Shown: positions 48,585 to 63,329, counted from the first letter of the stretch. The stretch: DNA of 64,000 nucleotides from Eubacteriales bacterium (GCA_045123255.1 JBGVIN010000010.1:3044-67043), one strand, 5' to 3'. Numbers and translations are program-made. The notes: generated from the letters alone by a model not told the origin.

Positions 48585-50876
48585 ATGGTAAAGCAAATTT
48601 TCAAAAGAAAAATTACGCTCTCAAGCGAAGCTAAAAAGGTAATTTCAGAATGTGTCCTTTTCTTCCTTGCACTGCTTTTAACGCCCGTTAAATTCATTTT
48701 CGGAACGCTCCCCTTCGGCTTTGTGCTTTGCGCGAGTGCGAAAAAGGACGCTCCCTTTGCATTTGTCGGCGCAATTTTTTCCTGTATTTTCTTTCTTGAC
48801 GACAAGGGTGTTTACATAATAGCCTTTATTTCTCTCTTTATTCTTCGCGTTCTCGTTTCCTTCCTTAAAAAGCCCGAGGGCGAAGCAAAGGAGCGCTTCG
48901 GCGTGCGCCTGCCTCATATTTTGAGGGAGCTTTTTTGTGAAAACATCTTTTTAAGAGTTTTAATTTCCCTTGCGTGCGCGTTTGGCGTGGGAATTTACTA
49001 CACCGTGCTTGGCGGCTATATGCTATACGATATTTTCGCGCTTGTGTTTTTCGTTTGCATCTGTCCGCTTCTTACCTATCTTGCAAGCGGACTTTGGGAG
49101 GGCGGGAATTCAAAGAGCTTTTTTATCGGACTTGCTATTATTACCTTTATGGTAGTCTTCTTTTTGCGTGGGCGAGCGGTTGGTGGCTTTGACTTTTCCG
49201 TTTTCCTTTCGTTTTCCCTCGTCTTTTTCGTTTCAAAATCGTCAGGCGTATGGGGTTTGGTTTTCAGTGCACTTATGTCGCTATGCTTTGAGCCACGCTT
49301 TGCCCTTACACTTATAATTTGCGCCCTTGTTTTCAGTATTCTTTCACACCTATCAACGCTCCTTGCAATTTTAGGCGCGGCTATTTTGGGAGTAAGCTAT
49401 TCCATTTGGGCAGGCGGCTACGACGCGTTTTCCTACGTTGTGCCTGAGCTTATCGGCGCCTGTGTGCTTATTTTCCCAATTTTGCAGCTAAATCTTATGC
49501 CTAATATAAAGCTTCGCGAGGGTGCGCACAAGCACGCGCTGAGTTACAGCACCTCATCCGAGCTTAGCGAGATAAAACGCGCCTCAAGCGACACCTCGCG
49601 CGCATTCTTAGATGCTTCAAAAACGCTTCATAACGCGCAAGCAGAATCAAAGGACGTCACAATCGAAGCCTTTTGCAGGGACGCAGAAAGATGCATCTTA
49701 AAATCGTGTGCATCGTGCCCAAAGGAGGAAATTTGTTGGTCACGCGATACGGAAACGACGGAGCGCGCACTCCGTTCAATTTCTGAAAGTGCCTACTACC
49801 TCGGCTCGCATGATAAAAGCGCACTTGACGAAAAATTCATACACAGATGCCCAAGCTTAGACAAAATCAGCGACGAGGTCTTGGAGCTTTCTCGCAAAAA
49901 CTTGGAAAACGGTATTAAAAACGATAAGCTTGAAATCAGTGCGTACGCATTTGAGCTTGCCGCTAAAATCGTTGGTGAGCTAAGGACGAAAAGCACAACG
50001 TATGAAAAGAACGAGCCGCTTTCCAAAAGGGCGGAAAATGCGCTCGCAAAAAGCGGACTGTGCTTTGAAAGTGCCGAGATTTTAGGCACGAAATCAATTC
50101 GCGCTTGCATACTTGATATAGATACGGTGAGGAGCAAAATTCCGATTTCAAAAATCCCCTTCGTGCTGAGCGACGCACTCGCAGTTCAATTTGACGAGCC
50201 AACCGTTATATCAAGCGGTGAGCTTTCAAGCGCAGAGCTTTTTTCTCTCCCACCTCACAAAACCTCATATTCAAAAAGAAGCGTGTCGCTCGGGGACGGA
50301 CCTTGTGGAGATACGCTCTGTGCATTCGGCGGTGGTGGGCGCTCGTTTTACTTAATTTGCGACGGAATGGGCACAGGCCACGGCGCACACCTAACCTCAA
50401 ATATGTGCGCTTCTTTTCTTTCCTCGATGCTCCCTATCACGAGCGAAACGGAAGCGTGCCTTGGCGTAATAAACTCATTTGTACGTGCAAAAAACGGCGA
50501 GCATTCATCAACCGTTGACCTTTTGGAAATCGATAACGTAACGAGGGAGGCGTCGTTTTACAAAAGCGGTGCTTGCGTTTCGCTTATCAAGCGAGGCGAG
50601 CGCGTATTTTCGCTTGCTTCTAAAACCGCGCCGATAGGTATTATGAAAAGGCTCGACTGTGAGCGTCTTTCCTTCACCTTTGAAAGCGGCGACGTTTGCG
50701 TTATGGTGAGTGACGGTGCTCTTTCAAAAAAGGGCGATTACTCGTACATTCAAAATCTGCTCGAAAATACAAAAGCAACCGAACCAAGCGATTTGAGCGA
50801 GGAAATCATAAACGAATTTTTAGCAAATAACGAGCAAACGGACGATTTAAGCGTTTTGGTTATTTATTTTGAATAA
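48585..50876 (+). CDS. spoIIE: stage II sporulation protein E (membrane-bound PP2C phosphatase)
   Basis: 763 aa. About 10 N-terminal TM helices, a central regulatory region and a C-terminal PP2C-like domain (CGDTLCAF, FYLICDGMGTGHGAHLTS, DDLSVLVIYFE). Confidence 0.85.
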   Translation: MVKQIFKRKITLSSEAKKVISECVLFFLALLLTPVKFIFGTLPFGFVLCASAKKDAPFAFVGAIFSCIFFLDDKGVYIIAFISLFILRVLVSFLKKPEGEAKERFGVRLPHILRELFCENIFLRVLISLACAFGVGIYYTVLGGYMLYDIFALVFFVCICPLLTYLASGLWEGGNSKSFFIGLAIITFMVVFFLRGRAVGGFDFSVFLSFSLVFFVSKSSGVWGLVFSALMSLCFEPRFALTLIICALVFSILSHLSTLLAILGAAILGVSYSIWAGGYDAFSYVVPELIGACVLIFPILQLNLMPNIKLREGAHKHALSYSTSSELSEIKRASSDTSRAFLDASKTLHNAQAESKDVTIEAFCRDAERCILKSCASCPKEEICWSRDTETTERALRSISESAYYLGSHDKSALDEKFIHRCPSLDKISDEVLELSRKNLENGIKNDKLEISAYAFELAAKIVGELRTKSTTYEKNEPLSKRAENALAKSGLCFESAEILGTKSIRACILDIDTVRSKIPISKIPFVLSDALAVQFDEPTVISSGELSSAELFSLPPHKTSYSKRSVSLGDGPCGDTLCAFGGGGRSFYLICDGMGTGHGAHLTSNMCASFLSSMLPITSETEACLGVINSFVRAKNGEHSSTVDLLEIDNVTREASFYKSGACVSLIKRGERVFSLASKTAPIGIMKRLDCERLSFTFESGDVCVMVSDGALSKKGDYSYIQNLLENTKATEPSDLSEEIINEFLANNEQTDDLSVLVIYFE

Positions 50877-51561: not shown

Positions 51562-52071
51562 ATGAAAAAATTTGCAAAAATCGCTATTCTTGCAGTTTTA
51601 CTTGTAGGAATTGTTCTTTCATTCGCTTCATGCTCGTTCTTCACTCCTTCATTTGAGGAAATGTGCGAGAACCTTGCAGACGAAAACTACCTTTGCGTAT
51701 ATTCAATGGGTAAGGATGAAACAAAGGACTACGACGAAACACTTGAAGAAAAGTACGACTTAAGCCTCAAGGGTGAGGTTACAGCACGCGCTGAGTACAC
51801 AAGCGGCACAAGCTTCATTCGTCTTTACGAGTTCCAAAAGAAAAACGATGCTATGACCGTTCAACAAGCACTTTACGATGAATTTATGAACGGCACACAC
51901 TACGGTAGCGGCTACGTATATAGATACTACTACATAGTTGATAGCATCTTGATCGAAACAAGCGCACAAAGCGCGGCTAAGGCAGCACTTGACGAGGCTT
52001 ACGTTCTTGTTGACCTTCCAAACGCAAAGACCGAGGACGTAATGGATTATTTTACAAGTCTTTTCGACTAA
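51562..52071 (+). CDS. hypothetical lipoprotein
   Basis: The internal start MKKFAKIAILAVLLVGIVLSFASC|S has AAGGAGAG upstream. The track start at 51505 lacks an RBS. Confidence 0.65.
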   Translation: MKKFAKIAILAVLLVGIVLSFASCSFFTPSFEEMCENLADENYLCVYSMGKDETKDYDETLEEKYDLSLKGEVTARAEYTSGTSFIRLYEFQKKNDAMTVQQALYDEFMNGTHYGSGYVYRYYYIVDSILIETSAQSAAKAALDEAYVLVDLPNAKTEDVMDYFTSLFD

Positions 52072-52105
52072 TACAGAGCGGTCACATTAAGGCACAAAAC
52101 ATAAA

Positions 52106-52137
52106 AGAGGCTGTCGCATTAGCGACGCCTCTTTTTA
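52106..52137 (+). terminator. rho-independent terminator (also the first module of repeat copy 2)
   Basis: AGAGGCTGTCGC-ATTA-GCGACGCCTCT followed by TTTTT. Confidence 0.75.
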
Positions 52138-52442
52138 GTAGGGGATAGTGAAATGAGTGTTGACCCACTCCTTGAAATTGCACTCAATTTCAAGGAACCC
52201 TCGGGGAGGCGTGAACACGGGAACGTCGGCGTACTGGCGTACGGTAGAGCCCGTGGTCGCGTCTAAAAAACAGACATAAAAAGAAGAGAACTTGCAACAA
52301 ATTGCAAGTTCTCAACATTAAATCGTTCTAAAATAAACAAATAAACTTGATTTTATTTAGGAATGCGTCTGTTTTTGATCTGTGCTTATTACGCGAGTAA
52401 CAAGGTTCTGCGTAGCAGGTTCTTATTGCAACATTCCCTTTG
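52108..52442 (-). repeat. interspersed element, copy 2 (~330 bp; two extra segments relative to copy 1)
   Basis: Collinear with the reverse complement of 4572-4822. One extra segment of about 45 nt lies near 52161-52207. A 31-nt segment at 52392-52422 is flanked by the direct repeat CTTATT (52386-52391 / 52423-52428). Confidence 0.85.
52275..52313 (-). terminator. rho-independent terminator of the tkt operon, carried inside the repeat element
   Basis: Perfect 12-bp stem GAGAACTTGCAA-TTTG-TTGCAAGTTCTC followed by TTCTTTTTAT on the minus strand, 133 nt after the tkt stop. Confidence 0.8.
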
Positions 52443-52445
52443 TTT

Positions 52446-53387
52446 TTATTTTTTAAGCGAAATTGCCATCTTTACCTTTTCAACTATGCCCTTAGCGTTA
52501 AGTGAATAGTATTCGATAAGCTCCTTTGCAGGGCCGCTCTTGCCGTAAACGTCGTTTACACCGTGGCGAACAACGGGAACGGGGTAATTCTCGCCGATAG
52601 CCTCAGCAACCGCCGAGCCAAGACCGCCTATTATATTATGCTCCTCGCTTACAACTATTGCGCCTGTGATTTTTGCATCATTAACAATTGTATCTACGTC
52701 AAGCGGCTTAATTGTATGAACGTTGATAACGGATGCCGAAATGCCCTCGGTGGCTAAGATTTCTCTTGCCTCAAGCGCCTCTGCAACCATCATACCGCTT
52801 GCAACTATCGTTACGTCGAAGCCGTCCTTTAATTTAACCGCCTTGCCGATTTCAAGCTTATAGCTTTCGTCGTTGATGATAGGAAGTGCCAAGCGTCCGA
52901 AGCGGATATATACAGGTCCCTCGTAGTTAATTGCTGCCTCAACCGCTGCTCTTGCCTCAACTCCGTCACTCGGGTTCATAACAACCATACCGGGGATTGT
53001 ACGCATAAGCGCGAGGTCCTCGTTACATTGGTGCGTTGCGCCGTCCTCACCAACACTGATGCCTGCGTGAGTTGCGCAAATTTTTACGTTTAAGTGTGGG
53101 TAGCCTATTGAGTTTCTAATCTGCTCAAAGCTTCTGCCTGCCGCAAACATAGCGAAGGTAGAAACGAACGGAATTTTGCCCGTTGTGGAAATACCCGCCG
53201 CAACTGAAAGCATATTGTTTTCAGCAATACCGCAGTCAAAAAATCTTTCGGGAAATTCCTTCTTAAAAAGACAGGTCTTTGTCGCTTCGGCAAGGTCGGC
53301 ATCGAAAACAACGATATTTTCGTTCTTTGCGCCGAATTCAAGAAGTGCCTTACCGTATGCTTCTCTTGTTGCAATCTTATCTGCCAT
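52446..53387 (-). CDS. tktB: transketolase, C-terminal (pyrimidine-binding) subunit
   Basis: 313 aa. MADKIATREAYGKALLEFG..., FDCGIAENNM, HAGISVGEDGATHQ. Confidence 0.92.
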   Translation of the reverse strand: MADKIATREAYGKALLEFGAKNENIVVFDADLAEATKTCLFKKEFPERFFDCGIAENNMLSVAAGISTTGKIPFVSTFAMFAAGRSFEQIRNSIGYPHLNVKICATHAGISVGEDGATHQCNEDLALMRTIPGMVVMNPSDGVEARAAVEAAINYEGPVYIRFGRLALPIINDESYKLEIGKAVKLKDGFDVTIVASGMMVAEALEAREILATEGISASVINVHTIKPLDVDTIVNDAKITGAIVVSEEHNIIGGLGSAVAEAIGENYPVPVVRHGVNDVYGKSGPAKELIEYYSLNAKGIVEKVKMAISLKK

Positions 53388-54235
53388 TAGTTGTTACCTC
53401 CCAAAGAGTTTCTAAATTCCGTAAGCTCGCTCACAGCCGTGTTATATTGCTCCTCATTAGGTGCTTTGCCGTGCCATGACGCTTGATTTTCCATAAAGGA
53501 AACGCCCTTACCCTTAACTGTTTTTGCAATAATTGCGGTTGGCTTACCCTTAACCGCCTTAGCCGCCTCAAATGCGCCTAAGATTTCTTCGATATTATGA
53601 CCGTCAACGGTTATAACGTTCCAGCCAAACGCCTCAAGCTTTGGCTCGTATGGCATAACGTTCATAACGTCCTCAACACGTCCGTCAATTTGCAAGCCGT
53701 TTGAGTCGATAATCATACAAAGATTATCAAGCTTGTAGTGTGCGGCAAACATAATTGCCTCCCAAACCTGACCCTCTTGGCTTTCGCCGTCACCAACGAG
53801 TGCGTATGTGCGGTAGCTCTTTTGGCTAATCTTTGCGCCAAGCGCCATACCGCAAGCGCAGGAAAATCCCTGACCGAGTGAGCCTGCCGACATATCAACG
53901 CCGTTTATCGCCTTCATGTCGGGGTGACCCTGCAAAAGCGCGCCTGTGTGTCTGAATGAATCAAGCTCGCTCTTATCAAAGAAGCCCTTTTCCGCAAGCG
54001 CGGCGTAAAGACCTGGGCATGAGTGTCCCTTTGAAAGAACAAAGCGGTCGCGCTCGTCCCATTTCGGATTATTTACGTCAATATTAAGCTCCGAAAAATA
54101 GAGGCAAGCCAAAATATCAGCACTTGAAAGTGCGCCTCCGGGATGTCCGCTTTTTGCGTTGAACACCGCGCGAAGTGCTCCAAGACGAATATCGGTTGCA
54201 ATTTTTTGAAGCTCTAAAATTCTTTCCTTTTCCAT
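53387..54235 (-). CDS. tktA: transketolase, N-terminal (thiamine-diphosphate-binding) subunit
   Basis: 282 aa. SGHPGGALSSADIL, FVLSKGHSCPGLYA, GSLGQG and GDGESQEGQVWEA motifs. 1-nt overlap with the C-terminal subunit gene. Confidence 0.92.
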   Translation of the reverse strand: MEKERILELQKIATDIRLGALRAVFNAKSGHPGGALSSADILACLYFSELNIDVNNPKWDERDRFVLSKGHSCPGLYAALAEKGFFDKSELDSFRHTGALLQGHPDMKAINGVDMSAGSLGQGFSCACGMALGAKISQKSYRTYALVGDGESQEGQVWEAIMFAAHYKLDNLCMIIDSNGLQIDGRVEDVMNVMPYEPKLEAFGWNVITVDGHNIEEILGAFEAAKAVKGKPTAIIAKTVKGKGVSFMENQASWHGKAPNEEQYNTAVSELTEFRNSLGGNN

Positions 54236-54275
54236 TATTAATCTCCTTAAAGCAAAATGAATACTTTTACACCCT

Positions 54276-54304
54276 ATTTTATCATTTATTTGTCAAGATG
54301 TCAA
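54276..54304 (-). promoter_or_regulatory. sigma-A-type promoter (extended -10) of the tkt operon
   Basis: Minus strand TTGACA (54299-54304) - 17 nt - TGaTAAAAT (-10 = 54276-54281). Confidence 0.55.
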
Positions 54305-54377
54305 TATAAGTAAGATATAAATTGCAAGCTAATATTTGGCTAAATCCGTCTTTTTTGATATTTATTCCCGTATAAGC

Positions 54378-55253
54378 CTAACGCGTGGCAAGAGCGTATG
54401 CTTTGAATTTTTGAAGGTAGTCGATTTTTTTAATTATTCCCGCGCGATGCTCGTCAACCACCCAAAAATAGCTTGAATACATTTGAAGCACGCCTGAGGC
54501 AACGTACATTACTATTTGAAGGGTATTCCAAATAAGCACCGCGGGATTCACCTCGCTAACGAGCGTTACGCCGAAGTAGCCGAAGATTATCGCCATAACG
54601 ACGCGCCCGATAGCATCAGTTAGGTTCTTTTGCGAGCTATACTCGCGCTTGCTTTTTCCAAAATCGAAGGGGTTGTTTTCCTTTACCCCCTCGCAGGTTA
54701 AGGTGCTTGGCGTTAGCTGCTTGATTTTAATTTTAAGCGCACGGTTAAACGCCTTTTTTCTTTTATGGTTTGCATATCTCATAGCAAGCCTGCGCCTAAA
54801 TTGTGCGCCCTTAATTTCCTCGTCGGAATAAAGGGAAAAATCGTAGGATGACACAATGCCGTCCTCACCGTAAAGCTCGCTGTATCTCAGCCCCTCTGCG
54901 GCAAGGATTTGCTGACGCACTCTTTTCGTTTCGCGCTTGTTTTCGCTCTCGCAAAACTCCTCTAAGCGGTCAAGGTGCGGCGAAATTTCGTCTATGCTTT
55001 GCGAATAGAGCCTTGCGGTTTGGAGCGTTTTTTCGTCAAGCTCACCGCGGCTCACTCCCATTGAGCGAAAAACACCGTTAATTAAAAGTCCAACGGTCAT
55101 GCTGATTACGCCCGAGGCTATTATTTCAAGTGCGCTCTTGCCCGTTTTTGAAATTATTATAAAGCTACTGCCTATATATGCCAGGGAAACGAGCAAAACC
55201 GCAAAATATCCCGCATTTTTATAAAACGCATCAAAAAGTGTGGTTTTCTTCAT
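54378..55253 (-). CDS. hypothetical membrane protein (2 N-terminal + 2-3 C-terminal TM, basic cytoplasmic middle); last gene of the phage-like operon
   Basis: 291-aa ORF. TM stretches YFAVLLVSLAYIGSSFIII, IIASGVISMTVGLLINGVF, VVMAIIFGYFGVTLV and IVMYVASGVLQMY. Start abuts the upstream gene (1-nt gap). Confidence 0.6.
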   Translation of the reverse strand: MKKTTLFDAFYKNAGYFAVLLVSLAYIGSSFIIISKTGKSALEIIASGVISMTVGLLINGVFRSMGVSRGELDEKTLQTARLYSQSIDEISPHLDRLEEFCESENKRETKRVRQQILAAEGLRYSELYGEDGIVSSYDFSLYSDEEIKGAQFRRRLAMRYANHKRKKAFNRALKIKIKQLTPSTLTCEGVKENNPFDFGKSKREYSSQKNLTDAIGRVVMAIIFGYFGVTLVSEVNPAVLIWNTLQIVMYVASGVLQMYSSYFWVVDEHRAGIIKKIDYLQKFKAYALATR

Positions 55254-55254
55254 A

Positions 55255-55662
55255 TTACACCCGTCCGCTTAAATCAAAAACTGTTTCCTTTATTATCTCT
55301 CTCGTCCTTTGCGCTCCGCTCTTATCCTTTTCGCGCTTTATAAAGAAGCGCACCGCCGTGGCGGCAAGCTCACCAACCAAGGCAAGGAACGAGAAAATAA
55401 GAAGGTCTGAAATTATGCTTTCGAGCAGGAAGGAAAAAAGAAACGCCAGGCTAAAGAAAATAAGCGTTGACTTGATTTTTAAGTAGCCGAGCGCTTTTAT
55501 CACTAAAACGGCAATAAGAAGCACTCCGCCAAATGCAAGGCGCACCGACGCCCCCTTGGTTCCTATATATCTTTCGTGGTTAACGGCAAAATAAATAAGT
55601 GCAGGTGCAACCGAGCAAGCAAACGAAAGGACGTAAAGAAGCGGAAGCTTAATTTTCTTCAT
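55255..55662 (-). CDS. small 4-TM membrane protein
   Basis: 135 aa with four hydrophobic helices. 14-nt overlap with the upstream gene. Confidence 0.6.
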   Translation of the reverse strand: MKKIKLPLLYVLSFACSVAPALIYFAVNHERYIGTKGASVRLAFGGVLLIAVLVIKALGYLKIKSTLIFFSLAFLFSFLLESIISDLLIFSFLALVGELAATAVRFFIKREKDKSGAQRTREIIKETVFDLSGRV

Positions 55663-56515
55663 TTTTCGCCGTCACCTCCGCCGTCTTGCATGTTCTTTTT
55701 TTAGCGCGGATGCTTGATTTTTCACCGTTTCCTGTGCTTGATTTCTCAGCTGACGGTTGCGGTGCGATAAAAGAAATATCCGTCGTATCGGTTAAATCAC
55801 ACTCGCCCTTGTCCTCGCCGTTTTTGCCTGAAAGTGCGCGGCATTCGCTAAGGAGCGCGGAAATTTTTCTGCCGTTTCCGCTTCTTATTACGGTTTGACT
55901 GCCCGAAAATCCGAGAGATATCATTTTTCCGATGTTGTAAGCCTCCGCACTTAGCTTGTCCTGTGCGTTTTTAAGCTCTGTCAGCTCCCTTTCAAGCTGA
56001 GGAATTAAGCTTGCAAGTGTGGAAAGCTCCTGTGCCTTGCTTTCAAGCAGGGCGCTTTGGCGTGCAAACTCGCTTTTTCTTTCACTTGCCTCATTTTTGA
56101 AGTCATCCCTTGCGCCCGAGAGGCGAACGAGGGATTTTTTAATTGCACCAAGAGATGCAAGCACGGCGGAAAGTGAGGTTAACACACCAACCACCACGGG
56201 AATTACCCTCTCCTTTATGTACTCCTTTATTTCCTCTGCACGCAAATCAACATCGCTTTGACCGTTTTCCTTGTTGTTCGCTCCATCAAGGTCAGCCTTC
56301 AGGGAATCATTTTCCCCTTGAATATCGTCTACTTCATCGCCCGGGTTAGTGTCCTCTCCTCCTTGCGCGCCCGCCGCCTCGCTCTCTATGCTCCCCGCTA
56401 TATATTCCAATTCGTCTAAGCTCTTTTCCTCGGCACCGCTGATGGCGCGGAAGCAAAAAAGCAAAACCACAGTGGCAATAGCAACGAGTGATACGGTAAT
56501 TAAAGCCTTTTTCAT
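55649..56515 (-). CDS. membrane-anchored coiled-coil protein
   Basis: 288 aa. N-terminal anchor MKKALITVSLVAIATVVLLFCF, an acidic region, a second TM (VIPVVVGVLTSLSAVLASLGAI), then a heptad-rich segment (SALLESKAQELSTLASLIPQLERELTELKNAQDKLSAEA). Confidence 0.6.
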   Translation of the reverse strand: MKKALITVSLVAIATVVLLFCFRAISGAEEKSLDELEYIAGSIESEAAGAQGGEDTNPGDEVDDIQGENDSLKADLDGANNKENGQSDVDLRAEEIKEYIKERVIPVVVGVLTSLSAVLASLGAIKKSLVRLSGARDDFKNEASERKSEFARQSALLESKAQELSTLASLIPQLERELTELKNAQDKLSAEAYNIGKMISLGFSGSQTVIRSGNGRKISALLSECRALSGKNGEDKGECDLTDTTDISFIAPQPSAEKSSTGNGEKSSIRAKKRTCKTAEVTAKNEEN

Positions 56516-56763
56516 TTTGTCACCTCACAGTCAATTGGATAAATTTCGTCGTTTCTGACGATGAATTTTACGTCTCTTCCGCTCTCGATGGCTTCCTTTG
56601 CCTCATTTGACAGCGGAAATTTGCCGACCGCCTTAAAGTCGCTTAATTTCGGGTTGGTCTTAATACGGCGCTTACCGTTTTTATCCGTATATTCAATTTT
56701 ATTTTCCGTGTTTTCTATAAGCGAGCCGTTTTCTACTTTATATACGCTTTCGTATGCTTTCAT
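56512..56763 (-). CDS. small hypothetical protein (83 aa)
   Basis: ATGA-type 4-nt overlaps at both ends indicate translational coupling. No family recognised. Confidence 0.55.
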   Translation of the reverse strand: MKAYESVYKVENGSLIENTENKIEYTDKNGKRRIKTNPKLSDFKAVGKFPLSNEAKEAIESGRDVKFIVRNDEIYPIDCEVTK

Positions 56764-58169
56764 TTTATCTCCTCATATTCAATTATTACCGTTTTGTTTT
56801 CCTTTGCCGCACCCCAAAGCTCGGATGATTTTGGCGTATAGCCGTCAATTTCGGGCGCGTTTATCTTATAAGCACTTCCCATTCTAAGCTCATAGCAAGA
56901 CGCGGTGGCTATTTCCGTTCCGCTTTCATTTTGATACTTAACGGTAAGGTATACTTTTGCACCCTCGTTTGATGAATAATATCTCGCCTCAACATGCGGT
57001 AAAAGCTTAGCTCCCCTGACGACAATTTTTCCGTCGCCCTTTGTTTTCAGGTGCGACAATAGTGCGCCTGCAAGGGTAGTGGATGTAATATCGTGCTCTA
57101 TTGTCTCTGCTCGCTTTGCAATTATTTGAACGGTCGCGGCGTTTTGGTGCTTTTCCTTTAGAAAATTAGTAATTTCGCTAAGCGCAACCTTATAATAAGC
57201 CATTCCCGTTTCGTTTCTTTCAAACTTTATGGCAAGACCCTTTGCGGACATCATAGTGAAAATGTTTTTCTGTGACGGCAAAATCGGCCAAGGTGTGAAG
57301 GTTAGATACGGACAGTAGCCGCGTAAAACCGAAACAGGCGCGTAATAATACGCCATAAGTCCTCTTCCCGTCGGCGCAACAGAGGTGTTTATCTGCCAAG
57401 GCTCATCACCTGTCAAGCTCAGACGCACCGAGCCCTCTCGATAAATAACACGATTTTCAAGAACCCTTATTTCAAGCTCGTCGTATTCCGACATAAGAAG
57501 CGGCACCTTAGAATCTTGATGCTGTATTTCCTTTGGAAGATTTAGCCTTTTGATTTTGGAATTAAACTCAATCGTTAAAAGCACACCGGTATCTCCCACA
57601 CAAATGACAGGAGTTTCGTAACCGGGAGATATTTCACCCTCTACTATCAAGTCGCACACGCTCCAAAAATCGATAAGCCCATCACGCGAAATTGATACCG
57701 AGCCGTCGTCCTCCTCTCTTTCACTTGTATATACGTTAGTAAAAATAAGATGTGTAAAGCCGTCACCGCTCACCCTAAAGGTCTGTCCATTTGAATTACA
57801 AAGAGGTGTTAAATTTGAAAAAAGAGGATTGTCGCCATCCGACAAATAAAGCAAAACTCCGCCGAGCGAGCCACTACTCTTCAACTCGTACGTCAGCTTT
57901 TTTCCAACAAATTCAGTCGGCAGAGCCAAAGTATACGTCCCCACTATTCCTGCATCAACGTAGCTGCCTGCATCCTTGATTTGCGAGAAATATTCCTCGG
58001 TGCGGTTTGGGAGCGGTTGTTTTGTCACGCCCTTTATTTTCAGATATTCAAACGGAACTCCTGCGTTTGCATCAAACGTAACCTCACCATCGCCACTTAC
58101 CGTTCTTAATTCTCCAACCTTGAAATACCGAGAGGTAATTCTGCGCTCGAATCGTTTAGTCCCTCTCAC
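56760..58169 (-). CDS. phage-like receptor-binding / adhesin protein with C-terminal MucBP-like domain
   Basis: 469 aa, no signal peptide. The C-terminal KVYLTVKYQNESGTEIATASCYELRMGSAYKINAPEIDGYTPKSSELWGAAKENKTVIIEYEE fits the MucBP pattern (V.Y.d..G..i......G..G..Y......I.GY.......G......v.Y). Confidence 0.55.
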   Translation of the reverse strand: MRGTKRFERRITSRYFKVGELRTVSGDGEVTFDANAGVPFEYLKIKGVTKQPLPNRTEEYFSQIKDAGSYVDAGIVGTYTLALPTEFVGKKLTYELKSSGSLGGVLLYLSDGDNPLFSNLTPLCNSNGQTFRVSGDGFTHLIFTNVYTSEREEDDGSVSISRDGLIDFWSVCDLIVEGEISPGYETPVICVGDTGVLLTIEFNSKIKRLNLPKEIQHQDSKVPLLMSEYDELEIRVLENRVIYREGSVRLSLTGDEPWQINTSVAPTGRGLMAYYYAPVSVLRGYCPYLTFTPWPILPSQKNIFTMMSAKGLAIKFERNETGMAYYKVALSEITNFLKEKHQNAATVQIIAKRAETIEHDITSTTLAGALLSHLKTKGDGKIVVRGAKLLPHVEARYYSSNEGAKVYLTVKYQNESGTEIATASCYELRMGSAYKINAPEIDGYTPKSSELWGAAKENKTVIIEYEEIK

Positions 58170-59293
58170 ATAATCACCTCGTAATCGACAGAGCCGACAC
58201 GCGCAAGCATAACGCCCGATACGCGCTTAACGCTTATCTCGTAAAGGCGCTTAGGCATTGGGTAAAAGCGACCCTCAAGCGTGTCATCTCCCGTAAACAA
58301 AAGCTCCTCGGGCGCATCAAGCGTAATTTCCGCGCTCGACGTTTTGAAGCATAAAATCGCCTCAAAAAATTCGTCCTCGGCTATATCCACCGTGAGCGCA
58401 CTTACCGTGCCGAGGTGGTATTCGTTCATGCTTTCAAGCAATACGCTCTCGCCAGTTACCGTATGCTTTGTCAGTGCTTGCTCCTTTCTTGAAAGTGAAT
58501 TCTCGGCAGATGCAAGGCGCTCATCAAGCGCTTCTATAAGAGATAAAAGGTGCGTCCTCTGCTCGTTAAGCTCCTCTTTTTTGGCAAGCATTGAGGTTTC
58601 AAAGCGACCCTCGCTTGAAACGAGACGAACGCCGCCTACAAAATATTTTTTGTTTGGCAAAAGCTCATAGCCTGCGGCAATATCGCTAATTTCAAGTGCA
58701 ATATCGCCCTCCTTTTCATCCACTTCTACGCCAAAGACCGTAAAATCAGGCTTTTCGGGGTCCTCTAAAAGAAGGATATCACCAACCACTCCCTCTCTCT
58801 GCGCGTATTCAAAAAGCTCTACCTCGTCATCAAAGCTGACTACACTGTTCTTGCCGCTTGCAATTAGAAGCGCCACCTCAGCCTCCTCTCTTAAAACGTC
58901 AAGCTCCTCTCTTATATCCGCGTGTGCGCTTGCACTTTGGTTGTGACGGTTATTCTCGTCGGTAATTTTTGCTCTGATATCACTATGCGATAGCTCGCTT
59001 TCATTATGTTCTATAAGCATAGCGGCGATATTTTCGCCAAGCTCGCTTATTCTTTCGTGCGCCTCGGCAGTATCAATTTCACCCTCACTAACTGCCGTAT
59101 CAATTTCACTAAGATGTAAATTGATTTTTTCGGCAAGGGTATTTATAAACTGATAAAAATATCTCTTTGTTTGAGATGATTTTTGACCGAGCGACGCAGG
59201 GGAATCAGCCAAGGAAAAGGGTGAATTTAATATAACCTCGTTTACCTCGCTGCCCTTTATCTTAAATCTATCACTCAATTGTTTTTCCTCCAT
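58166..59293 (-). CDS. phage tail-fibre-like protein
   Basis: 375 aa. Tandem HNESELSHSDIR / HNQSASAHADIR motifs of the kind seen in Firmicute prophage tail fibres (from memory). Predicted coiled-coil segments. No signal peptide. Confidence 0.5.
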   Translation of the reverse strand: MEEKQLSDRFKIKGSEVNEVILNSPFSLADSPASLGQKSSQTKRYFYQFINTLAEKINLHLSEIDTAVSEGEIDTAEAHERISELGENIAAMLIEHNESELSHSDIRAKITDENNRHNQSASAHADIREELDVLREEAEVALLIASGKNSVVSFDDEVELFEYAQREGVVGDILLLEDPEKPDFTVFGVEVDEKEGDIALEISDIAAGYELLPNKKYFVGGVRLVSSEGRFETSMLAKKEELNEQRTHLLSLIEALDERLASAENSLSRKEQALTKHTVTGESVLLESMNEYHLGTVSALTVDIAEDEFFEAILCFKTSSAEITLDAPEELLFTGDDTLEGRFYPMPKRLYEISVKRVSGVMLARVGSVDYEVIM

Positions 59294-59299
59294 ATATTT

Positions 59300-61780
59300 T
59301 TAACTTACGTAATACTCAATCATCAAAAAGCCGATATAGACAGGCTTTTCGTCGTTTGAAGTAATTTTTACGTCAAGATAGTCAAAGCCGCGCACAAAAA
59401 ACGGTATTGCAATATGCGCGTCCAAGCCGTAGGTCATATCAAGACGGTTGAAGTCAAGTGCTTCAAAATCAAGCGGCTGTGCGGTTGTAATTTTCTTTGA
59501 ATACGAGGACGAGCGCGTTGATATTTCCGCCTCTATTTCGCCCGCGGTTCCGCTGTAAACGTTTAGGTAAAGCCTTGTTACCGTGGCATTTTTTAAGTGC
59601 GTGCCTATCGGTAGCGGCGGAGTTTTGTATTCGCATGAAATCTTCACTCTCGTCTCTAAAATAACGCTTGAAAGCCCGTCGATTTTAACCGCTTCACCGC
59701 ACGATTTTAAGTATATCGCGCCGTTTTCCCACTCTGCCTCGTATACGCCCGAGTCCTTTTTTAAGTAAACCGAATACTCGTCCGCGCTCTCTGTGTCTAC
59801 TCCTTCGTCGACGTCAAGATAAACCGTGTCCTCTCCCTCGAAAAGCACTCTGTTTCCGAGTACACCAAGCACCGTTTTTTCGGTTTTCTCCGTACCGTTT
59901 TCAAGAATTAGCGTGTCGCCGTAAAACAGCTTAACCGAGCCGCCAGGGTACGTTGGTGAGCCATCATAAAATATAGTTGCACCGTTTGATTTCCTTGCCT
60001 TGCCGATATAAAGCCTGTGTGCGCCAACTCTTATAACGGTGTTATCCTCAAGGCTTGTTTTGTCGGTAATTAAGCGCGTTTTCTCACCCTCGTTGTCCAC
60101 AATTAAGCTAAGCGTACTTGTGGAATATTCGCGCAAGGTTATATCGCTATAACCCGAATGCATTTTTCTTATTTCGCCGCTTTGCGTGCCGAAATAAAGC
60201 TCACCGCCAAGCGTGCAAGCCACCCTTGCGCCAAAGCCGTACCACGGATACCAGCTATATTCTTTTTTACTACCCGAACCGGTTACGCCCACGTAGCAAT
60301 TATTTCCTATAAATAGGTAGTATTTACCGTTGTGAACAAGCGAGCAGGCTTCTCTTTTTTCTTCCAGCGTGTAACCTGATAGTGCCTTGTCGATATCAAG
60401 TGAGCGCGGACTCAAAAGGCAGACCTCACGCACGCTCGATTTGTAATCATCTACGCCAAAAACGCCCTGACCGTTCAAAACAAGGCAATCGCTACCGCAA
60501 ATAGAGACGGAATAAGCGCTCAAAGCACCAAGGGAGTCAGCTGAGGAGATCACCTCGCAAAAATCCTTTGCAAAGCTTATTCTGTAAAAGCCGTTTTCCT
60601 TAAATACACCTACTAAATTGTCCCAAAGCTGAAGGACAGCCGTGATTTTGTCCTGTCCGCCGAGCATTATTCTGTTATCCCTCGGCAAATACGCAAAGCC
60701 CTCGGCTGGGTCGCTGTAATAAAGCTCGTTTCCGCCTCTTGTAAAGGCAAGAAGCTCCTCGCCGCCCGCGTGTGTGGCAAGCGCGCCAAGCTCCACGTCG
60801 TAAAGCAAGGAACGGTAATTTTCGCTCGACTCATACTCAATAACGATATTTTCCTCGCTCGGATACGGCGCGCAAATCTCAAAGCCGAAGCAAAGCTCGC
60901 GGTGGTTTTTAAGCCTTACACCAAACGGAAGTGTGTCAAAGGTGTGAATTTTATCACCTATTTTAATTTTGATTTCCTCGCCTCGGTCGTTTCGTATCGG
61001 CTCGGTTAAGAAAAATCTCACCGTATCGTCAACGCTTTCCTTTACGTAACGCAAATTTACAACCGTGCTTACCTCCTCGCCTGCACTGTTTATGCCAATA
61101 TACGAGGTTGTGTAGTCGTTGTCGGGGTCGGTTGAAGCCTTCGTTCTGATTTTAACGTCAATTGTGAGCGGCTTTTTATAAGCTATCTCGCCGTCAAGCA
61201 CGAAAACGTTCTCCTCGCCGTGAACCTTAAACGTGTTACCGCCGAAGAGCTTATTTTTGCGGCGCGGATTTAATATATTCGGGCTTTGGTGCGCTTGGCA
61301 TTTCATTCCGTTTTTGCGGTCGGTTATTCCCGTCGCGGTAGTCGGAACGAACGTGCCGTCTAAAAAATACGCGCTCTTTACCGTTTCACCGTCGAAAATT
61401 AAAATATCTCCCGCACCGATAATATAGAGCTTGCCGTTTCTTAAAAATCCGCGCGAGCGCTTGTCCTTGATTGTAATGCCGCTCTCGGCTTTAACCTCGC
61501 GAACGTAGTTAAATTCTCGGTCAAGCTCGAAAATGTGCGCTCCCGCATGCACTATCTTACACTCAACCGCTTCCCCGTTTTTAAGGTAGGTATATTCAAA
61601 AATACCGTTTATTCTAAGCGGATTTCCGTTTTTGTCCCTTATCTCCGTCACCGTTTTGTGTCCGTTTCTTTTAACAAGACCCTCGCCTGCGAAAACAAGA
61701 TTTTTAAGTGCGCCGTAGCTTCTTGAATCAAAGATTTTTGCTCCCGTATTTACGTTTTCAATATGTAATTTCTTTTTCAT
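59300..61780 (-). CDS. large beta-rich phage-like structural protein (826 aa), function unknown
   Basis: Long ORF with no signal peptide or TM. Gly/Asn/Tyr-rich beta-strand-like composition. Tightly packed between the 202-aa gene and the fibre-like gene. Confidence 0.6.
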   Translation of the reverse strand: MKKKLHIENVNTGAKIFDSRSYGALKNLVFAGEGLVKRNGHKTVTEIRDKNGNPLRINGIFEYTYLKNGEAVECKIVHAGAHIFELDREFNYVREVKAESGITIKDKRSRGFLRNGKLYIIGAGDILIFDGETVKSAYFLDGTFVPTTATGITDRKNGMKCQAHQSPNILNPRRKNKLFGGNTFKVHGEENVFVLDGEIAYKKPLTIDVKIRTKASTDPDNDYTTSYIGINSAGEEVSTVVNLRYVKESVDDTVRFFLTEPIRNDRGEEIKIKIGDKIHTFDTLPFGVRLKNHRELCFGFEICAPYPSEENIVIEYESSENYRSLLYDVELGALATHAGGEELLAFTRGGNELYYSDPAEGFAYLPRDNRIMLGGQDKITAVLQLWDNLVGVFKENGFYRISFAKDFCEVISSADSLGALSAYSVSICGSDCLVLNGQGVFGVDDYKSSVREVCLLSPRSLDIDKALSGYTLEEKREACSLVHNGKYYLFIGNNCYVGVTGSGSKKEYSWYPWYGFGARVACTLGGELYFGTQSGEIRKMHSGYSDITLREYSTSTLSLIVDNEGEKTRLITDKTSLEDNTVIRVGAHRLYIGKARKSNGATIFYDGSPTYPGGSVKLFYGDTLILENGTEKTEKTVLGVLGNRVLFEGEDTVYLDVDEGVDTESADEYSVYLKKDSGVYEAEWENGAIYLKSCGEAVKIDGLSSVILETRVKISCEYKTPPLPIGTHLKNATVTRLYLNVYSGTAGEIEAEISTRSSSYSKKITTAQPLDFEALDFNRLDMTYGLDAHIAIPFFVRGFDYLDVKITSNDEKPVYIGFLMIEYYVS

Positions 61781-61784
61781 CTTT

Positions 61785-62393
61785 TCACCAGCTATATACC
61801 GCTTCTACCTCACCCTGTGTCGCACTTTTGCCACGATACACGCCAAGACCGTCGTAAAATCTTTGGCGAAGCTCGCGCGCTCTTTCGCTGTCCTCGTGCA
61901 TACAAAGCTCGGAGGCGACAAAGTACGGAATTAACGAGGCAACGCCGAAATCAAGCTCAGGCTCATAGCTCTCCTCGGTAACATATCTCACCTTTTCAAC
62001 GCTTGATTTATAAACGACCTCTATCTCGCCGCAGTCAGCTCCCAAAAGAAGAACGTACGAGTCAACCTCGCTATACTTAATCTCCCTGCCGTCTTGGCGT
62101 ATGGAAAGCACGCTTAATAGGTCAGGGATTTTCTCCTTTAGGTTGGTTGCGTTTTTCGTGTTCTTTACCGTCACGGCGGCGCGCTTGGTTTTTGTCGCTC
62201 CTGCGTTTTCAATTTCGCAAAGCGCACGGTTGATAGCGGGCACGGCACTGTCAAGATACGAGCGAATGCTCGGGTCGCACTTTAATGCGTTCATTGCCTC
62301 GTTTATGCTATTGTCGTTTTGTGCGTCGAAGCGCACCTCGATTTCGGGGAAAATTAAAAGAAGCGCTTCCTTTTTGATTTCTCCAATTTTCAT
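61785..62393 (-). CDS. hypothetical protein (202 aa), possibly a virion connector/adaptor-like protein
   Basis: Start set at the ATG at 62393 (MKIGEIKKEALLLIF...) with AAGGAG 6 nt upstream. The longer track ORF would overlap the upstream gene. The function guess rests on position only. Confidence 0.5.
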   Translation of the reverse strand: MKIGEIKKEALLLIFPEIEVRFDAQNDNSINEAMNALKCDPSIRSYLDSAVPAINRALCEIENAGATKTKRAAVTVKNTKNATNLKEKIPDLLSVLSIRQDGREIKYSEVDSYVLLLGADCGEIEVVYKSSVEKVRYVTEESYEPELDFGVASLIPYFVASELCMHEDSERARELRQRFYDGLGVYRGKSATQGEVEAVYSW

Positions 62394-62445
62394 TTTTTCT
62401 CCTTTACAACAAACGGACATCTTAATTTTAAGTGTCCGTTCAATG

Positions 62446-62754
62446 TTAAAAATCCTCAAATTTTAAGTTTTGTGTCTGTTGCTTTTCAGCATCCTTTAAT
62501 TTGTTGCCCGAGGTGTCACGCAGAAACACCGCCGCCTGCGTATCTCCCCCCGATGCCTTCAAAATTTGCATAAGGAGTATAACCTCCCTATAATTCAAGC
62601 GACCGCCAACAGGCGAATTTTGTATCGCCTGCGGCAAAAATTCGCTTGGCAGCTCCAAGGCAAGCAAAGTGTCAAGCGTTTCCTTAAACGAAACCTCGCG
62701 CCTTGCCTGCCTTTTGGTTTTCTTCACGTTTTTTTGTACCTTATCCTTTATCAT
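62446..62754 (-). CDS. small basic protein (102 aa); C-terminal half resembles phage small-terminase/DNA-binding proteins
   Basis: MIKDKVQKNVKKTKRQARRE... then NYREVILLMQILKASGGDTQAAVFLRDTSGNK, which resembles the ...A..G(D/N)..A..F(I/L)RDT.G.K block I recall from small terminase subunits of Firmicute phages. GAGAGGA RBS. Confidence 0.45.
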   Translation of the reverse strand: MIKDKVQKNVKKTKRQARREVSFKETLDTLLALELPSEFLPQAIQNSPVGGRLNYREVILLMQILKASGGDTQAAVFLRDTSGNKLKDAEKQQTQNLKFEDF

Positions 62755-63009
62755 ATTCCTCTCTTTCCTTTAACCGCGACCGCTTAAATTTATTTGCCGC
62801 GGCTTTAACCCTTCGCACCTTCATTATTGCATAAAAAAACCGGTACCAAACGGTACAGTTTCACGAATTTTGATAGACTTTCTTTCCAGTAGTCATACGC
62901 ATTCTCCCTCCGTCGCGCCAAATTCTCATTTTACAAAGCCAACGCCTCATCGGCGCGCCACCTCCCTCCCAGAAGGAGGCTTGATGGGTACCAAACGGTA
63001 CAATTTCAT

Positions 63010-63150
63010 ACAATCTTTGATTGATGCCATTCAAGCCAAGGCTTGATTCCATTCCGCGCAAGCACGGATTCCATACACGCTTCGCGTGATTGCATACAAC
63101 CTGCGGTTGATTTTATGCCTTCCCTAGCAGGGAAGGTGGCACGAAGTGAC
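63010..63150 (+). repeat. hairpin array built on the word ATT(C/G)CAT plus a CCTTCCC-n5-GGGAAGG / GACGGATGAG module
   Basis: tcaagccaaggcttga TTCCATT ccgcgcaagcacgg ATTCCAT a cacgcttcgcgtg ATTGCAT a caacctgcggttg ATTTTAT gccttccctagcagggaaggtggcacgaagtgacggatgag. Confidence 0.7.
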
Positions 63151-63329
63151 GGATGAGTAGTAGAGAAACATATCAGGTGCGAAATGACAGAAAAGATAAG
63201 CATCGGCAATTCGCAATCGTGCGCCATTTGACAAAAAAGAACAGGCTCTTGCCTGTTCCTTGAGTTTTTTTATTTTGTATGCGGTTGACGCCAAAATTGC
63301 AGAGCGGTAAAGCGCTTGTCTTACAAAAG

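Follow-up and report, generated by a model that had tools for sequence, protein, structure and literature searches.

What is a set of phage tail genes doing, without a phage head, between housekeeping genes of a gut bacterium? The question is raised by nine genes at positions 54378-62754 of a 64,000-nucleotide stretch of DNA from a Eubacteriales bacterium (GCA_045123255.1, JBGVIN010000010.1:3044-67043). The whole stretch is referred to here as the window and the nine genes, g1 to g9, as the block. Comparison with related phages and bacterial genomes gives good support to the view that the block is an anciently domesticated podovirus tail module, neither a decaying remnant nor part of a larger prophage. 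By analogy with tailocins, the chances are about even that it yields headless tail particles that serve as a weapon, similar to tailocins but of a third type derived from podoviruses.

Organization of the block

Loci that carry this gene set and no head genes are termed headless. The nine genes, with product lengths in amino acids (aa), are:

62446-62754, minus strand: g1, 102-aa basic protein of phage origin, always the first gene of headless loci; matches PHROG 2412 (function unknown)
61785-62393, minus strand: g2, 202-aa putative head-to-tail adaptor (T7 gp11-like position), from a profile match and gene position
59300-61780, minus strand: g3, 826-aa tail nozzle (tail tubular protein B; T7 gp12-like, P22 gp10-like) as predicted by AF2 fold and Foldseek
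58166-59293, minus strand: g4, 375-aa acidic coiled-coil protein, putative tail fibre or fibre shaft, from position
56760-58169, minus strand: g5, 469-aa putative receptor-binding protein with a C-terminal MucBP domain (Pfam), part of a swappable cassette
56512-56763, minus strand: g6, 83-aa soluble protein travelling with g5, which it adjoins in phages and headless loci
55649-56515, minus strand: g7, 288-aa bitopic protein with an N-terminal signal/anchor, a second transmembrane segment at 104-122 and a coiled-coil C-terminal part, from hydropathy
55255-55662, minus strand: g8, 135-aa protein with three to four transmembrane segments and a charged C-terminal tail, holin-like in size and topology only, from hydropathy
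54378-55253, minus strand: g9, 291-aa protein with 2+2 transmembrane segments around a basic helical domain of ~150 aa, from hydropathy and phage homologues

All nine open reading frames are intact, and the open reading frame listing agrees with the strand and coordinates given in the initial annotation, which had been made from the sequence alone. That annotation described 4-nt overlaps or gaps of 6 nt or less throughout, apart from one gap of 52 nt. The long gap is at the g1/g2 junction, the gaps at g2/g3, g3/g4 and g8/g9 are 4, 6 and 1 nt, respectively, and 4-nt overlaps are present at g4/g5, g5/g6 and g6/g7; only the overlap of g7 and g8 departs from the description, at 14 nt. The start codon of g5 is listed as GTG. 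In a hydropathy scan no 19-residue window reached 1.6 in g1-g6, and hydrophobic segments numbered two in g7, three to four in g8 and four in g9. The division into six products without a signal peptide or transmembrane segment and three membrane proteins thus stands.

At the level of protein families, none of the nine products matched a capsid, portal, terminase, lysin or integrase in Pfam, PHROGs or NCBIfam, as the initial annotation had also concluded, and the same databases gave no match to the tube, sheath, tape measure or baseplate families of R- and F-type tailocins, or to an endolysin, holin family or regulator. NCBIfam returned zero matches for the block, PHROGs two weak ones (g1 and g2), both to families of unknown function, and Pfam a sole domain across the nine proteins, MucBP in g5. 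Repressor, replication and packaging-redirection genes of phage satellites are absent from the block (Pfam, PHROGs), as are a secretion ATPase, sortase signal and cell-wall anchor (Pfam). The anti-phage defence models of PADLOC gave no match other than one coiled-coil noise match (LmuB, E 0.007). No other phage-like genes resembling those of the related phages described below are found in the window, and no att-like direct repeats flank the block.

A podovirus tail nozzle and a putative adaptor

The g3 family is small; a word-indexed search found 29 matches, all from metagenome-assembled genomes (MAGs) of Clostridia. An AF2 model built from 26 of these 29 sequences has a pLDDT of 87.3 and a pTM of 0.80. 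When the model was compared with the PDB by Foldseek, all of the top 28 matches were podovirus nozzles (E 2e-19 to 1e-8, probability 1.0), and the nozzles matched include those of T7 (gp12), E1004, A4, P-SCSP1u, HRP29, LME-1, PhiM1, Kp7/Kp9, Carin-1, SU10 and P22/Sf6 (gp10). In BFVD the top match is a 'Stabilization protein' from a gut virome (E 5e-51, TM 0.73), with numerous 'Tail tubular protein B' entries ranking after it. Sequence identity to the solved nozzles is only 9-11%, and a nozzle profile found nothing among PDB sequences; fold comparison alone succeeded. A tblastn search of cultured phages gave a weak match to a virion structural protein of Bacillus podophage Page. On the predicted structure, g3 is a podovirus tail nozzle.

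The g2 product is a candidate head-to-tail adaptor. A profile of g2 and its phage homologues matches PDB 9d83_B, 'Head to tail adaptor Gp50' (E 4e-4), and there is a weak match to phrog_13046 (E 2e-6); tblastn against cultured phages found none. The gene always immediately precedes the nozzle gene, and in phages it immediately follows the capsid gene. Its product is of full length, aligns collinearly with those of the phages and has both termini conserved. In gene order and predicted products, the g2-g3 pair matches the gp11-gp12 arrangement of T7.

Complete phage relatives

A distant nozzle homologue (23% identity) is found on a phage contig that carries head and packaging genes, in the order TerL, portal (phrog_156), likely scaffold, small protein, major capsid (phrog_267), g2 homologue, nozzle and g4 homologue. 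A nozzle-alignment scan of IMG/VR gave 21 phage contigs (L019-L039), and a g9-alignment scan of species-representative genomes gave 37 loci. Iterated hidden Markov model searches over all open reading frames of both sets split the loci into two classes. Phages and prophages have the order (TerS-TerL-)portal-scaffold-capsid-g2-g3-g4-g5-g6-g7-g8-g9, followed in all by a protein of 355-735 aa and, in the prophage-type loci (L059, L065, L067, L071-L074, L078 and L079), by a further one of 2229-2517 aa. Headless loci have g1-g2-g3-g4, a variable segment and g7-g8-g9, and nothing else of phage type. Judged by this gene order, the headless block is a podovirus late operon from which the head end and the cargo end are both missing. 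The initial annotation had listed, as one possibility, the tail/receptor-binding module of a podovirus-like element; as a statement of ancestry this is borne out by the nozzle fold, the adaptor match and the complete relatives with the same gene order.

The giant protein of the prophage-type loci lies at 11910-18947 in L065, 11913-18602 in L074 and 4106-11659 in L059. It has an ART-PolyVal domain in L065 (E 1e-18) and a weak LPD3 match in L074 (E 0.004), domains which point to a polyvalent protein, presumably injected cargo. Polyvalent proteins, according to PMC5512222, are carried inside the virion and are injected along with its DNA. In a related podophage contig from IMG/VR (L031, 12384-16709), a reverse transcriptase gene (RVT_1, E 5e-14) is present among the fibre genes, one of which has BspA-type LRR_5 repeats; the reverse transcriptase is probably part of a diversity-generating retroelement acting on the receptor-binding protein.

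The first gene, g1, sets the headless loci apart. All 17 of the aligned members match phrog_2412 (best E 1e-9), and the family comprises 346 clusters, all from Clostridia MAGs. No homologue was found in the related phage contigs, g1 being confined to headless loci, and tblastn against cultured phages gave no match. The C-terminal part of g1 had been described as small-terminase-like. The motif KFEDF is indeed shared with the C-terminus of TerS of the related phages, but hhalign aligned only the last seven columns and the similarity is not significant (E 0.075); a TerS remnant is therefore no more than a lead.

Chromosomal position and inheritance

The block ends at the promoter of a split transketolase gene pair, tktN-tktC (tktAB):

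54276-54304, minus strand: strong sigma-70-type promoter of tktN/tktC, TTGACA-17-TAAAAT with TG, 11/12 in a promoter scan; downstream boundary of the block

A headless block is present in 26-28 species-representative MAGs, assigned to Oscillospiraceae or to Eubacteriales or Clostridia bacterium, from the ruminant and human gut. In most of these loci tktN-tktC follow g9, and dxs often precedes the block. The tktAB synteny is kept at 67%, 40% and 35% nozzle identity, and a variant with a different fibre cassette also adjoins tktAB. Among headless lineages nozzle identity is only 22-70%, and that of the tkt proteins is 71-78%. Identity to the window tracks tkt identity, with a Spearman coefficient of 0.93 for the nozzle and 0.80 for g9 (n=19), and the nozzles of headless loci cluster together in a neighbour-joining tree, to the exclusion of every phage nozzle.

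The genes are also maintained by selection. The ratio of nonsynonymous to synonymous substitution rates (dN/dS, Nei-Gojobori) between the window and the relative L010 is 0.09-0.35 for all nine genes, compared with 0.05-0.07 for tkt. Against the 98%-identical L001 it is 0.06-0.39 for eight of the nine, and 0.73 for g6, where there are four substitutions only. The nine reading frames are intact in every locus with full coverage. These comparisons support well the conclusion that the block is an old, vertically inherited host locus under purifying selection, the headless version of which became fixed beside tktAB in the ancestor of an uncultured gut Oscillospiraceae/Eubacteriales clade.

Could the missing phage genes lie just past the right edge of the window, as part of a larger prophage? 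This had been proposed, and the neighbouring sequences speak against it. Contigs that encode the identical 102-aa g1 protein were found in eight metagenomes and are 97-99% identical to the window across the block. In L005, dxs ends ~310 nt before g1 and the slot between them (1575-1885) is otherwise empty. The window (62755-64000) and L003 (621-1697) have one membrane-anchored protein of 327/358 aa between dxs and the block. In L001 (6687-9721) and L002 the slot holds a helix-turn-helix gene, a 441-aa lipoprotein, a 40-aa open reading frame and a 404-aa protein with multiple transmembrane segments. The stretch from dxs to the block is thus a slot whose content varies even between strains with 97-99% identity elsewhere. 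Upstream, the first conserved gene is dxs, separated from the block in some loci by variable genes of non-phage type, and tktAB lies downstream; neither near-identical strains nor distant relatives have head genes there. The search for head genes, which covered the 64-kb window and the 10-kb flanks of ~28 headless loci, found none.

The neighbourhood is conserved, not rigid. Extra genes are inserted between g9 and tktN in L052 (2175-9900) and L049 (3027-3500), and in L057 and L063 dxs is downstream of tkt instead of upstream of the block. In the deep-branching headless loci L060, L066, L068 and L077 (also L056 and L069), a 275-287-aa gene and others follow, not tktAB; these loci either occupy a second chromosomal site or retain an older gene order.

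A phage-type late promoter

Two features are located upstream of g1:

62811-62857, minus strand: phage-type late promoter, with GTACCG-N4-GTACCG, a T7 run (seven T residues), an extended -10 TGCAATAAT (62823-62831) and a conserved GGTGCGAAG, from conservation
62987-63111, minus strand: partial copy of the promoter repeats at 62987-63008, plus three degenerate direct repeats of 23 nt at 63003-63111, from a repeat search

The promoter end is 69 nt upstream of the g1 ATG, and the element occurs once in the window. Its consensus is GTGTACCG-N4-GTACCG-G-TTTTTTT-A-TGCAATAAT-N3-GGTGCGA. In ~16 of 18 headless loci it precedes g1 with hardly any variation, although the proteins of these loci are only 25-60% identical. 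Related phages have the same architecture, in the form GTATCG-N4-GTATCG-T8-ATGCAATAAT, with GTATAG repeats in some. There the promoter opens the late operon, at a distance of 1.1-1.4 kb from the downstream TerL gene, and directly follows a gene of ~130-145 aa that resembles Sigma70_r4 (E 6e-6 in one member, 0.01-0.02 in others). From these shared features the block is judged to keep the late promoter of the phage family.

Every phage locus that includes the promoter region has a member of this Sigma70_r4-like putative activator family, but neither the window nor the flanks of headless loci do; the block would therefore depend on an activator supplied in trans. Passages in two papers on Gram-positive phages place late activator genes upstream of terS, an arrangement as found here (PMC3753634, PMC3152322). 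The possibility that g1 is the missing activator was rejected, as the two are unrelated (hhalign E 0.37). Among IMG/VR phages, no GTACCG-type promoter was found. This mildly favours a dedicated, co-inherited activator over that of any passing phage. A promoter-motif scan of metagenome contigs for other members of the regulon gave five loci, of which at least three are phages and two are unassigned. Relatives of the L014 terminase in IMG/VR did not yield the late promoter of the prophage-type phages.

The region 62835-63150 had been annotated as a REP-like cluster and terminator. It is better described as the late promoter, a partial duplicate of it and three degenerate repeats. A promoter/terminator scan had also placed a 'terminator' at 62843-62856; this is reread as the GTACCG direct repeats, because the sequence and not the pairing is conserved and phages carry such repeats at the start of the late operon. 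The segment 62987-63008 is a 95% duplicate of the GTACC repeats without the -10. The 23-nt repeats at 63003-63111 have the form ATTNCATACAA...GAT, and L010 has a similar TGTATGGAATCA-like array upstream of its promoter. Perhaps the repeats at 62987-63111 are extra regulator sites. An RNA element or riboswitch upstream of g1 was considered and rejected: Rfam searches over 52000-64000 (E up to 1) gave nothing real, and the g1 leader does not fold better than shuffled sequences (z -0.56). Inspection by eye found no convincing match to a mother-cell sigma-type promoter upstream of g1.

The receptor-binding cassette and exchange with resident phages

The g4 product, which is homologous to the gene after the nozzle in phages, has no Pfam match, and its profile found nothing significant in the PDB; its assignment as a putative tail fibre or fibre shaft is by position. 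The MucBP-like domain at the end of g5 had been noticed at the outset, and Pfam confirms it at residues 409-465 (E 5e-7, 30.7 bits against a curated cut-off of 23). A g5 profile found nothing significant in the PDB. The cassette between g4 and g7 is replaceable; depending on the headless lineage it encodes a MucBP protein, a DUF285 protein or something else, and in this it resembles tailocin and phage fibre loci.

Seven MAGs hold both a headless and a prophage-type locus, and three such pairs can be compared gene by gene. Between L074 (phage) and L064 (block) identity is 26% for g2, 27% for g3, 63% for g4, 89% for g7, 100% for g8 and 82% for g9. Between L059 (phage) and L049 (block) it is 89% for g5, 80% for g6, 50% for g7, 40% for g8 and 52% for g9, and between L073 (phage) and L052 (block) it is 94% for g5 (77 aligned residues only), 37% for g7, 45% for g8 and 54% for g9. 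Identities of up to 100% in g4-g9, with only 26-27% in g2 and g3, show that the distal half of the block (fibre or receptor-binding and membrane genes) has recently recombined with phages of the same cell and that the proximal half has not.

This bears on what g5 may bind. Adhesion to the animal host or its mucus is unlikely, because the receptor-binding domain is 89-94% identical to that of resident phages in the same MAGs. The similarity points to a bacterial surface receptor, on the same or closely related bacteria as those the resident phages recognise. Of the possibilities first offered for the locus, a domesticated phage-derived apparatus is the one that the evidence favours.

The membrane proteins

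In the phages g7, g8 and g9 are located between the receptor-binding genes and the injected-cargo genes. Homologues in the g7 position are 164-237 aa in length. The g8 protein is conserved in phages (E 1e-22) and has no match in PHROGs, Pfam or NCBIfam, and its PDB profile search gave nothing significant. The best-conserved gene of the block is g9 (dN/dS 0.06-0.12), which matches its phage homologues with E 1e-68 and belongs to a family of more than 203 clusters. Its AF2 model is all-helical with a pLDDT of 68.8. Foldseek found nothing significant for this model (best E 1.2), and its PDB profile matches are noise; a weak likeness to alpha-helical pore-forming toxins is accordingly discounted as evidence. 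If g9 is inserted from inside the cell, its basic domain of ~150 aa is predicted by the positive-inside rule to face the cytoplasm.

Proposed function and alternatives

In the mechanism favoured here, a Sigma70_r4-like activator acting in trans, from the host or from a resident or infecting phage, would bind the GTACCG repeats and turn the operon on. Adaptor, nozzle and fibres would then assemble in the cytoplasm into headless tail particles, to be released by lysis. The particles would bind the surface receptor used by related phages, on kin or competitor cells, and g7-g9 would provide a membrane step, either release of the particle from the producer or a channel in the target membrane. A tailocin-like use is favoured because, as in the R/F pyocin locus, a headless cluster between housekeeping genes is combined with an activator-dependent late promoter and swappable, phage-recombining fibres. 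Loss of cargo needed only by a DNA-injecting virion also fits a tailocin-like particle. A fuller version of this proposal, namely that free headless podovirus tails from an inherited operon form a third structural class, and either kill via g7-g9 or act as phage-induced decoys, is put forward more tentatively, at somewhat under even odds. As decoys, their receptor specificity would be kept current by recombination with the very phages that are countered.

Several points weigh against a tailocin-like particle. All the evidence comes from MAGs and metagenomes, and expression, particles and killing are proposed on the basis of gene content. In podoviruses such as P22 and T7, the tail is normally built up step by step on the portal once the head has been filled, and the block encodes no portal; a full-length adaptor with both termini kept may still need one. 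The block has no endolysin or recognisable holin and, unlike the R/F pyocin loci, no regulator in cis. The membrane proteins g7-g9 are without detectable relatives of known function by sequence or fold, and a role for them in release or killing is a guess. The pairs of loci from one MAG could include binning errors; the identical g8 of L064 and L074 does indicate that these two come at least from a common population. Head genes could also be located at other sites of the genome.

Does the operon instead serve in defence against phages? It might be silent until a phage of the family infects or is induced and supplies the late activator. Host-encoded tails could then compete with phage tails for filled heads, with g1 perhaps disturbing packaging, or empty tails freed at lysis could occupy the receptor on neighbouring kin and limit phage spread. 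Such a phage-triggered system would explain a phage late promoter with no activator in cis, would be matched to the related prophages of the seven block-carrying MAGs through recombination of receptor-binding and membrane genes, and would not need lysis genes of its own if the phage lyses the cell. The conserved adaptor termini and the terminal KFEDF that g1 shares with TerS can be read in the same way, and precedents are reported in islands that disturb tail assembly or make use of the late activators of a helper (PMC11364771, PMC3753634). A dedicated activator, however, fits better with GTACCG half-sites kept across many host species when the phages examined have GTATCG, GTATAG or other half-sites. 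Compatibility with a phage portal is doubtful for an adaptor and nozzle that are monophyletic and 26-27% identical to those of resident phages. A poison or decoy has no obvious need for g7-g9, yet these are the most constrained genes. There is also the lack of a PADLOC match, and the g1-TerS similarity is not significant. A phage-triggered role is somewhat unlikely, while being the main alternative.

The three remaining explanations are less likely, in the order given. In the first, the block is one piece of a dispersed domesticated phage resembling a gene transfer agent (GTA), with head and packaging genes elsewhere under the same activator, so that complete particles are made. In Rhodobacter, the GTA genes are spread over several loci, and a sigma-like factor activates them in trans. 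An implied trans-acting activator would thus be in keeping, and a full-length adaptor suggests a portal partner. No head gene was seen in the window or the flanks searched, however, and a simple internal deletion explains the block, since phage head genes occupy the interval from the promoter to g2. The promoter-motif scan added only the phage and unassigned loci mentioned above, and the loss of injected-cargo genes fits a particle without DNA. A dispersed phage is improbable.

In the second, the tail stays in the envelope of the producing cell, where g7-g9 anchor it or to which they export it, and works as an adhesin or in contact-dependent delivery. Three membrane proteins, a large g9 domain predicted to be cytoplasmic and a distal MucBP protein would suit a cell-bound structure, and g1-g6, lacking signal peptides, would need a dedicated route. 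Against this, the related phages regularly carry g7-g9 and the MucBP protein, which were not acquired for export, the receptor-binding protein common to resident phages implies a bacterial receptor, and no secretion ATPase, sortase signal or cell-wall anchor is encoded. A cell-bound structure has little probability. Least probable is a decaying, functionless prophage remnant, another suggestion of the initial annotation: the lack of head genes, integrase and lysis enzyme and the mostly hypothetical products would suit it, but nine genes intact wherever coverage is full, with dN/dS well below 1 in recent and deep comparisons (the exception being g6 against L001, as given above), and with position and promoter kept across lineages whose tkt proteins are only 71-78% identical, do not resemble decay.

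Comparison with known systems

The closest parallel to the proposed tailocin-like particle is with the R/F tailocins, of which the pyocin locus of P. aeruginosa, between trpE and trpG, is an example. Common to both are a headless tail cluster between housekeeping genes with no integrase or capsid, purifying selection, swapped receptor-binding genes that recombine with phages, and a phage-type late promoter that needs an activator. R/F tailocins differ in having a sheath/tube, baseplate and tape measure, where the block has podovirus ancestry and a core of adaptor and nozzle, and in having a lysis cassette and a regulator in cis, both absent from the block, whose killing activity is putative. 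A review of tailocins recognises two types only, R and F (PMC6629978), and a literature search found no report of a podovirus-derived tailocin or a domesticated podovirus tail. The block thus appears to be a phage-tail type without earlier report as domesticated.

With the T7 and P22 podovirus tails (gp11 and gp12; gp4 and gp10) the block shares the nozzle fold, the adaptor profile match and, in its intact relatives, the order capsid-adaptor-nozzle. Those podoviruses have a portal, capsid and terminase; the block has none of the three and is a chromosomal gene set, not a virus. After the fibres, the block has membrane proteins with classical transmembrane helices, in place of which there are gp14-16 in T7 and gp7/16/20 in P22. 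The uncultured gut podophages and prophages of the same clade have the same g2-g9 order and late-promoter architecture and show recent g4-g9 exchange with the block. They have in addition TerS, TerL, portal, scaffold, capsid, the post-g9 protein, the polyvalent protein of 2.2-2.5 thousand aa and the Sigma70_r4-like activator, and lack g1.

GTAs and PBSX-type defective phages are likewise domesticated, inherited phage structural genes under a sigma-like activator, but encode heads and package DNA; the block has no head or packaging gene. Staphylococcal pathogenicity islands (SaPIs) and other phage-inducible chromosomal islands (PICIs), including capsid-forming PICIs, are also chromosomal subsets of morphogenesis genes, and a possible response to helper late activators is a further likeness. 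Capsid-forming PICIs, as outlined in 10.1101/2022.09.08.507074, make heads and steal tails, and on that outline are the mirror image of the block. Satellites have an integrase, replication, repressor and packaging functions and mobility, whereas the block has none of these and keeps a fixed position across the clade.

Other features of the window

A gene with a SpoIIE domain lies just beyond tktAB (48585-50876, plus strand), with equivalents in L010, L040 and L046; from this neighbour the hosts are probably spore formers. At 14760-35822 on the minus strand there is a single 7020-aa open reading frame, none of the three thirds of which has a Pfam domain above threshold.

Biological significance

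To our knowledge, the domesticated phage-tail machines described (tailocins, extracellular contractile injection systems including the PVC type, type VI secretion systems and GTAs with tails) all come from long-tailed phages. By the current view a short podovirus tail needs a portal to assemble, and it has no tube for membrane puncture. A headless podovirus tail that has been under selection for a long time implies that the adaptor-nozzle complex can assemble and act alone, or that it works with infecting phages, and either would be new biology. The hosts are abundant, uncultured bacteria of the ruminant and human gut. In them, the locus offers a natural system for the capture of a phage late promoter and its activator by a host, for the flow of receptor-binding modules between phages and host-owned particles, and for the role of g7-g9 in a large family of gut podophages. 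Should killing be borne out, the particles would provide a new scaffold for narrow-spectrum antibacterials against Gram-positive anaerobes.

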